Source: a virus (taxonomy: Duplodnaviria > Heunggongvirae > Uroviricota > Caudoviricetes). From it: a DNA stretch of 5,987 bases. A program made the position numbers and the translations under genes. The stretch covers positions 1-5,987 of IMG/VR virus record IMGVR_UViG_2695420643_000008. One strand, written 5' to 3'. Of the stretch, positions 1,536 through 1,572 are shown piece by piece (the first letter of the stretch is position 1; each line of letters begins with the position of its first letter). The notes beneath the pieces are model-generated. The model was not told the DNA's origin. It saw nothing but the letters and a program-made list of their open reading frames with translations, and searched no databases.

Positions 1536-1572
1536 ATAACCTCCTGATGATACCTGTTCATCGGGAGGTTAT
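1536..1572 (+). promoter_or_regulatory. 15-bp-stem inverted repeat (7-nt loop) that buries the moron ribosome-binding site
   Basis: 1536-1550 (ATATAACCTCCTGATGA) pairs with 1558-1572 (TCATCGGGAGGTTAT) with one G-U wobble; loop TACCTGT. The 3' arm contains the GGGAGG Shine-Dalgarno (1563-1568) 5 nt before ATG 1574. No U-tract follows, so it is not a canonical intrinsic terminator. Confidence 0.6.

Follow-up and report, generated by a model that had tools for sequence, protein, structure and literature searches.

Several phage genes, among them e, soc, 49, I-TevI, I-TevII, I-TevIII and segB of T4 and mobE of Aeh1, have a ribosome-binding site (RBS) that is held in a stable helix on read-through transcripts, with repression of about 100-fold in the case of e (PMC3014915, PMC2988022). 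Genes of this type are translated from a promoter located in the DNA coding for the helix's 5′ strand, such that the later transcripts are free of the inhibitory arm (PMC3014915, PMC2988022). Here we describe a hairpin at positions 1536-1572 of a 5987-base stretch of Caudoviricetes DNA (IMG/VR record IMGVR_UViG_2695420643_000008, positions 1 to 5,987; hereafter the window), which is the late-regulatory region of an Escherichia coli lambdoid prophage resembling Shiga toxin (Stx) phages. The hairpin lies between the gene for antiterminator Q and an open reading frame (ORF), referred to below as the cargo ORF, and encloses the Shine-Dalgarno (SD) sequence of the latter. It is probably an anti-SD/SD translational lock, with the control of translation as its main role, a view that we base on its structure, stability, strand specificity, conservation and genomic context. 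The mechanism class is a textbook one and well known in phages; it is the example itself that is new, and its value lies in this example and in the protein encoded behind the hairpin.

The hairpin reads ATAACCTCCTGATGA / TACCTGT / TCATCGGGAGGTTAT. An earlier, sequence-only reading of the window had described a 15-bp stem with a single G-U pair and a 7-nt loop, and both the sequence and the predicted fold confirm this: there are 15 contiguous pairs with one wobble (T1545-G1563), and the minimum free energy (MFE) of the RNA is −22.8 kcal/mol compared with −7.0 ± 2.4 kcal/mol in 200 dinucleotide shuffles (z = −6.6; 0/200 as good). The same reading had placed GGGAGG inside the 3′ arm and the end of the hairpin 1 nt before the ATG at 1574, which is also correct, and the RNA fold of 1520-1590 that it had proposed as a check gave −26.1 kcal/mol for the 71 nt (z = −5.0). 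When 300 nt (1400-1700) were folded the hairpin was retained, with no evident alternative fold. It ranks top among the inverted repeats of the window. Stems of 15 bp or more without interruption (G-U pairs allowed, loops of 3-10 nt) arise in 3.3% of dinucleotide-shuffled windows, and the position of this one exactly on the RBS makes a chance origin far less likely still than that frequency. The minus strand, on which the G-U pair becomes C-A, is without any stem of at least 11 bp. Furthermore, an RNAalifold consensus of 7 variants allows the helix to be extended to 1530-1578, in which case the AUG is paired too; hairpin and lower helix together comprise about 20 pairs with two 1-nt bulges. An Rfam search of the window by E-value for the hairpin as a known RNA family returned only a spurious minus-strand match (E = 0.43).

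Related loci were collected by protein-guided scans of viral contigs, GTDB genomes and metagenomes and by BLAST against E. coli, giving a sample of 62 loci with 8 hairpin variants that fall into two clades, about 80% identical to each other; the window belongs to clade 1, while one clade occurs in Stx2 prophages just 5′ of pR′-tRNA-stx2A. These loci help to fix the start codon. The frame given by the ORF finder opens at ATG 1547, within the 5′ arm; the real start is ATG 1574, because this is the start annotated in RefSeq, because the N-terminus that results aligns with those of other family members, and because in clade 2 a 1-nt insertion throws ATG 1547 out of frame, with one lineage having GTG at the position aligned to 1574. 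The preference of the sequence-only reading for a start right after the hairpin is thus borne out on all four counts.

Occlusion of the initiation region is nearly complete by prediction. The probability that the SD is paired is 1.00 in the window and 0.90 in clade 2, and the translation initiation region (TIR) of the cargo ORF is the most structured among those of 35 neighbouring prophage genes, though it lies in the most AT-rich segment. To hold the region from the SD to +13 open takes 16-22 kcal/mol on read-through RNA versus 3-4 kcal/mol for RNA starting at 1546 or 1551. The gap in opening cost is thus estimated from the model at 13-18 kcal/mol, and the SD:anti-SD duplex returns only 11 kcal/mol. 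In models of the Salis type the initiation rate is exponential in this free energy, and on that footing initiation on read-through RNA would be subject to a roughly thousand-fold block. The claim that the hairpin as RNA strongly represses initiation therefore agrees with the SD pairing of 1.00 and the opening cost of 16-22 kcal/mol, while the repression of translation itself is what we infer from these values.

The hairpin is conserved beyond what its surroundings would suggest. Between the two clades the cargo ORF has dS = 0.79, pS = 0.49 and dN/dS = 0.24, and is under purifying selection; set against that synonymous difference, the 5′ arm differs at 2/15 positions (binomial P = 0.0046) and all 30 stem positions together at 4 (P = 5e-5). 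Clade identity is 0.83 in the hairpin versus 0.43-0.60 in the intergenic DNA just upstream, which also has an 11-nt indel. Both of the clade changes in the 5′ arm yield G-U pairs, and the U-G pair turns into U-A. The copy in the window is a minority variant, most copies having C1562T and hence two G-U pairs. Among the 62 loci there are 6 stem substitutions, and pairing is kept through G-U or A-U in 4/6. In clade 2, 14/15 RNA pairs are kept compared with a DNA symmetry of 12/15; the latter is 14/15 in the window and 13/15 in the majority variant. Judged across the variants, this pattern favours an element acting as + strand RNA over a duplex operator. The lower helix contains one compensatory change from U-A to C-G, in the lineage with the GTG start (L003, position 3050, aligned to 1574, with its partner aligned to 1534), while the sister ATG lineages have a C-A mismatch at that pair (1534 : 1574).

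Conservation within these loci is not matched in the wider protein family. No SD-sequestering structure is present in 26 other family members, which come from a variety of bacteria and phages and have an MFE of −3 to −17 kcal/mol, with one exception to that range (L076) owing to an unrelated upstream hairpin; the nearest homologues (44% and 39% identity) are also without the hairpin. The idea that the hairpin is a family-wide trait of the protein is thereby ruled out, and its absence from these 26 relatives points to an adaptation to the genomic position rather than to the protein.

That position is well defined. The cargo ORF begins 75 nt past Q and upstream of the late promoter pR′, with no canonical terminator in between. 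pR′ was placed by a conserved block common to the window, phage 933W and two related prophages, with the qut region and first terminator following it, and its location at 2258-2286 puts the cargo ORF between Q and pR′. The same alignment with 933W rules out a pR′ directly after Q, with the hairpin as part of the late leader or qut. GC content across 1500-2250 is 0.29-0.45 versus about 0.5 in the flanks. For the stretch from Q through the hairpin (1250-1640), strain CFSAN029787 has an identical copy, copies that are nearly identical occur in S88, DEC9B and some 50 further complete E. coli genomes, and the cargo gene is restricted to 74/5426 E. coli genomes. The 3′ half of this Q allele is present in 75/5426, hairpin and ORF accompany it in 74/75, and no empty site was found among the 5426. 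The 3′ half of Q forms one module with the cargo gene and pR′ hexamers, all of which travel together (1250-2300 in the window; also in L003, the Stx2 prophage of strain 2014C-4587), and the clade 2 matches directly 5′ of pR′-tRNA-stx2A include Shiga toxin-producing E. coli O104:H21 and O113:H21. The clades align at about 80% throughout Q, hairpin, ORF and pR′, which rules out the hairpin as a mosaic or recombination joint. Individual loci are disrupted in various ways. In one IMG/VR contig (L026) the sequence after CATTGG in the 3′ arm is replaced, presumably by the end of an IS1 element, which it seems to resemble, and in another locus (L002, 3354-4550) the cargo ORF is split by ISVsa5. Premature stops or frameshifts occur in 4/46 clade-1 copies; the assembly behind at least one of them (L081) is visibly full of indels, so that errors of assembly, and not real decay, may account for some of the truncations.

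The protein behind the hairpin has a genuine WYL fold in its N-domain (Sm/SH3-like), starting at about residue 3, as the sequence-only reading had supposed in calling it WYL-like. Neither Pfam nor a structure model gives a helix-turn-helix (HTH) or other recognised DNA-binding domain, so the protein lacks the N-terminal winged HTH that defines the wHTH-WYL-WCX group (CapW / BrxR / DriD); PADLOC and NCBIfam yield weak WYL matches only. Literature searches by protein accessions, by PHROG identifier and by the terms antiterminator Q, moron and WYL returned nothing relevant to the cargo gene. The WYL domains of DriD and CapW are reported to bind single-stranded nucleic acid (PMC11662680), and the HTH-less WYL protein encoded here may likewise sense or sequester single-stranded nucleic acid. 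The gene had also been called a moron. In the sense of Juhala et al. 2000, a moron is cargo of atypical composition that has its own promoter and terminator and is present or absent between homologous phages. The composition and cargo character agree with that description; by contrast, no promoter or terminator of its own is detectable, and the gene is always co-inherited with this Q allele rather than present in some homologous phages and absent from others. It is best seen as cargo carried distally in the pR operon, behind Q, not as a classical self-contained moron.

A mechanism can be proposed from this arrangement. With Q on one side, pR′ on the other and no promoter that can be recognised as its own, the cargo gene would be transcribed behind Q, at the end of the delayed-early pR operon. 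On such read-through RNA the 5′ arm would emerge before the SD, and since it is made first, the hairpin would close at once and binding of the 30S subunit would be blocked. In this way an inserted gene could be kept almost silent at a critical regulatory junction. Purifying selection on the ORF (dN/dS as above) implies that the protein must nonetheless be made, and so that the lock is either leaky or conditionally opened. The opening route is a matter of speculation. The protein may be required only in trace amounts; it may be translated from RNAs with a 5′ end inside or beyond the 5′ arm, such as a weak internal promoter (1532-1537) or endonucleolytic cleavage by RNase E or RNase III might produce; or the lock may be opened by a trans-acting RNA or protein.

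Several observations weigh against the translational lock or limit what can be said for it. Scans by consensus and by position weight matrix (PWM) of the window and three related loci found no convincing sigma-70 promoter with a start inside the 5′ arm, so that unlocking in the manner of T4 is unsupported. The internal candidate is a −10-like hexamer at 1532-1537 (TATTAT in the window, TATAAT in 13 loci and TACAGT in clade 2), which would set the start near 1546; its −35 is poor and it is not above background in either scan. So strong a lock also sits uneasily with an ORF that is under purifying selection. A pair is lost in two variants: A1547-G in clade 2 and C1540-A, seen in 3 loci, the latter weakening the SD as well. 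Conservation of the 3′ arm is to be expected of any SD. Additionally, covariation is uninformative with only two clades, the observed score being reached by 339/500 shuffles.

Two of the opening routes that had been suggested for the hairpin can be set aside or doubted. Melting by temperature is excluded and an RNA thermometer ruled out, as the prediction gives one and the same fold over the range of 25-70°C (−20.7 kcal/mol at 42°C, −19.6 kcal/mol at 45°C), the stem persisting as the MFE structure even at 70°C. Melting by a coupled ribosome is unlikely, because Q ends, with tandem stop codons, 38 nt 5′ of the stem in clade 1 and 26 nt 5′ of it in clade 2, and a ribosome terminating there cannot reach the stem. 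A three-part switch was considered in which a segment of Q (1402-1416, complementary to the 5′ arm at 12/15 positions) would compete for that arm; it was rejected, as clade 2 retains only 11/15 of the match, the local stem is by far the stronger of the two and the 300-nt fold makes no use of the segment, and we judge this near-match to be due to chance. Another near-match to the complement of the 5′ arm, at 3040-3054, is the SD region of a small gene starting at GTG 3055, where the context of the ribosome site (TTATCAGGAGGCTAT) is very similar.

It is improbable, in our estimate, that the hairpin is a conditional gate rather than a simple damper. Such a gate would be opened either by translation only from a short lysogen-specific or processed RNA without the 5′ arm, which would be a sigma-70, lambdoid equivalent of the transcript-specific release seen in T4, or by a self-sensing circuit, in which the HTH-less WYL protein (Sm-like and presumed to bind single strands), or single-stranded nucleic acid sensed by it, would capture the 5′ arm or loop and so open its own ribosome site.

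Of the explanations that place the main function elsewhere, the one that fares best, while still unlikely, is intrinsic termination: a leaky terminator or attenuator would end the pR operon just past Q and N-modified polymerase would read through it, SD sequestration being a by-product or second function. The sequence-only reading had noted that no U-tract follows and that this is not a standard terminator, which is right for the full stem (tail UAUGGAUAA, terminator score −7.6) and less so if only an 11-bp GC core (1540-1568) forms in the transcribing polymerase: the tail is then the U-rich UUAUUAUGG, and a score of the d'Aubenton-Carafa type turns marginally positive. In that register the stem is GC-rich, with 6 G-C pairs and a 7-nt loop, and the score of +11.8 exceeds the +2.5 of the 933W-type first leader terminator, yet the clear terminators of the window score 21-55. 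The tail in clade 2 has an additional U (UUAUUUAUG / UUAUUUGUG), but nowhere does it have more than 2-3 consecutive U, and a terminator scan makes no call at the hairpin in the window or in three related loci. The AUAA on the 5′ side, which is paired to the tail, is reminiscent of the A-tract found in bidirectional terminators; on the other hand, the lower helix goes on to pair the start codon beyond the tail and includes a compensatory change there, which would be superfluous for a terminator. Moreover, the purifying selection on the downstream ORF implies that transcription must pass this point.

A stable intercistronic hairpin directly 3′ of Q could alternatively serve RNA stability or processing, as a protective 3′ stem-loop that keeps the Q message stable once cleavage has occurred downstream or as an RNase III site at which the cargo mRNA is separated off or degraded, and we regard this as improbable to a somewhat greater degree. 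With the lower helix the structure reaches about 20 pairs, which is the lower size limit for RNase III substrates, and is immediately preceded on its 5′ side by a conserved AU-rich segment that is single-stranded (AUAUUUUA). A stability role nevertheless leaves unexplained why the arms are the SD and its complement and why the helix ends at the start codon, given that a protective hairpin for Q could sit anywhere and need not overlap the next TIR. It could also coexist with the translational lock.

Least probable, to the point of being hard to credit, is a site acting at the DNA level, either a promoter or the palindromic operator of a dimeric protein, for which the sequence-only reading had suggested the WYL-like protein itself: the 15-bp near-palindrome with its 7-bp spacer has the form of an operator, but its symmetry is lower in the majority variant as well as in clade 2, with RNA pairing holding at 14/15, the adjacent protein is without an HTH, the WYL domains of DriD and CapW are reported to bind single strands (PMC11662680), and no cognate DNA-binding protein is encoded nearby, Q acting downstream at pR′. 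As to a promoter, the minus strand does carry TGAACA-16-TATAAT at 1560..1533, with 10/12 consensus positions the best sigma-70-like match of the window by count and among the top four by PWM, and its RNA would be antisense to Q; it degrades to TGAACG-16-TACTGT in clade 2, where it is not called, and promoter-like matches in the window are as many as shuffles lead one to expect (7 vs 7.1), so that a minus-strand promoter for an anti-Q RNA was rejected.

The features of the hairpin and its surroundings are given in Table 1. After the cargo ORF the window continues with a pR′ leader like that of 933W, with two terminators, and a methylase remnant; the tRNA genes come next, and downstream of these are small ORFs together with genes for a TerB-domain protein and a NanS-type esterase. 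The three tRNA genes of Stx phages are followed by the stx genes; at this place (2962-4330) the window instead has two small ORFs (3055-3279 and 3332-3541) and the TerB-domain gene (3731-4162). The gene at 3332 also has a fairly structured initiation region, with an MFE of −22.2 kcal/mol and a probability of 0.77 that its SD is paired. On the + strand at 4334-4503, just 5′ of the NanS-type esterase gene, there is a strong Rfam match to the small RNA family STnc100, which scores 102 bits where the gathering score is 47 (E = 3e-22).

Table 1. Positions of the hairpin elements and of the main genes and signals in the window.
Feature	Position	Strand	Remarks
DUF968/HNH gene	114-1109		
Antiterminator Q gene, PF06530	1127-1498	+	Upstream neighbour, presumably in the same transcription unit as the cargo ORF
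5′ strand of lower helix, UUUAU	1530-1534	+	Pairs with AUGGA 1574-1578, covering the start codon; RNAalifold consensus
5′ arm of hairpin	1536-1550	+	Non-coding, strongly conserved; anti-SD CCUCC at 1540-1544
Loop UACCUGU	1551-1557	+	7 nt; UACACGU in clade 2
3′ arm of hairpin	1558-1572	+	Contains the SD
Shine-Dalgarno GGGAGG	1563-1568	+	5 nt 5′ of the start codon; predicted duplex with the 16S rRNA 3′ end −11.0 kcal/mol
Cargo ORF, 205 aa, phrog_8498	1574-2191	+	AT-rich; N-terminal WYL/Sm-like domain, uncharacterised alpha/beta C-domain, no HTH
Late promoter pR′, TTGTGT-17-TAGTGT	2258-2286	+	Aligns with the annotated pR′ of phage 933W; 3′ of the cargo ORF
First terminator of pR′ leader	2321-2341	+	Homologous to that of 933W; not dedicated to the cargo ORF
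Three tRNA genes	2715-2961		

If the hairpin is a translational lock, it shows how a temperate phage can tolerate foreign cargo between Q and the late promoter, the gene riding the early operon while translationally silent. The module stands directly 5′ of pR′-tRNA-stx2 in some Stx prophages and is also found in extraintestinal pathogenic E. coli such as S88, so that in both settings the conditions that open the lock would define when an HTH-less WYL protein appears. Should the hairpin instead be a conditional gate, the Q-pR′ junction would be a place where output of a WYL-only protein is coupled to signals of the phage or of DNA damage, Stx2 prophages included. The locus also calls for caution in annotation, as a strong SD and an intact ORF are by themselves no proof that a gene is expressed.

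Among described systems, RNA thermometers (ROSE, fourU, lambda cIII) resemble this locus in having an SD occluded in the 5′ untranslated region, but their helices are short, mismatched and melt at 37-42°C. Rho-independent terminators share the GC-containing stem, the 7-nt loop and, in one register, a U-rich 3′ side, whereas the hairpin described here has no U run and a marginal score (+11.8). The RNase III site of the lambda N leader and the alternative structures of cIII are structures of lambdoid early-operon mRNAs, adjacent to a TIR or including it, that set translation and can be altered by RNase III or by refolding; they are larger and imperfect and have known effectors, in contrast to the simple perfect hairpin found here. 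The closest likeness is to the RBS-sequestering hairpins of the T4 type (McPheeters et al. 1986; reviewed in PMC3014915 and PMC2988022). The differences concern the means of release, as T4 has a late or middle promoter in the 5′ strand where this locus has only the −10-like hexamer at 1532-1537 with no good −35, and the host genome, which here is that of a temperate lambdoid phage with sigma-70, N and Q; in addition, the stem here, with 15 contiguous pairs and −22.8 kcal/mol, is stable enough in the model to stay the MFE structure at 70°C. What they have in common is a gene embedded, here presumably, in an upstream transcription unit, with its SD, AUG or both in a very stable local helix (here the SD and probably the AUG), such that read-through mRNA is, or in this locus would be, poorly translated. 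Furthermore, several of the T4 genes are inserted, promoter-poor cassettes that are to be kept quiet, much as the gene described here sits behind Q with a hairpin peculiar to the context of its insertion.
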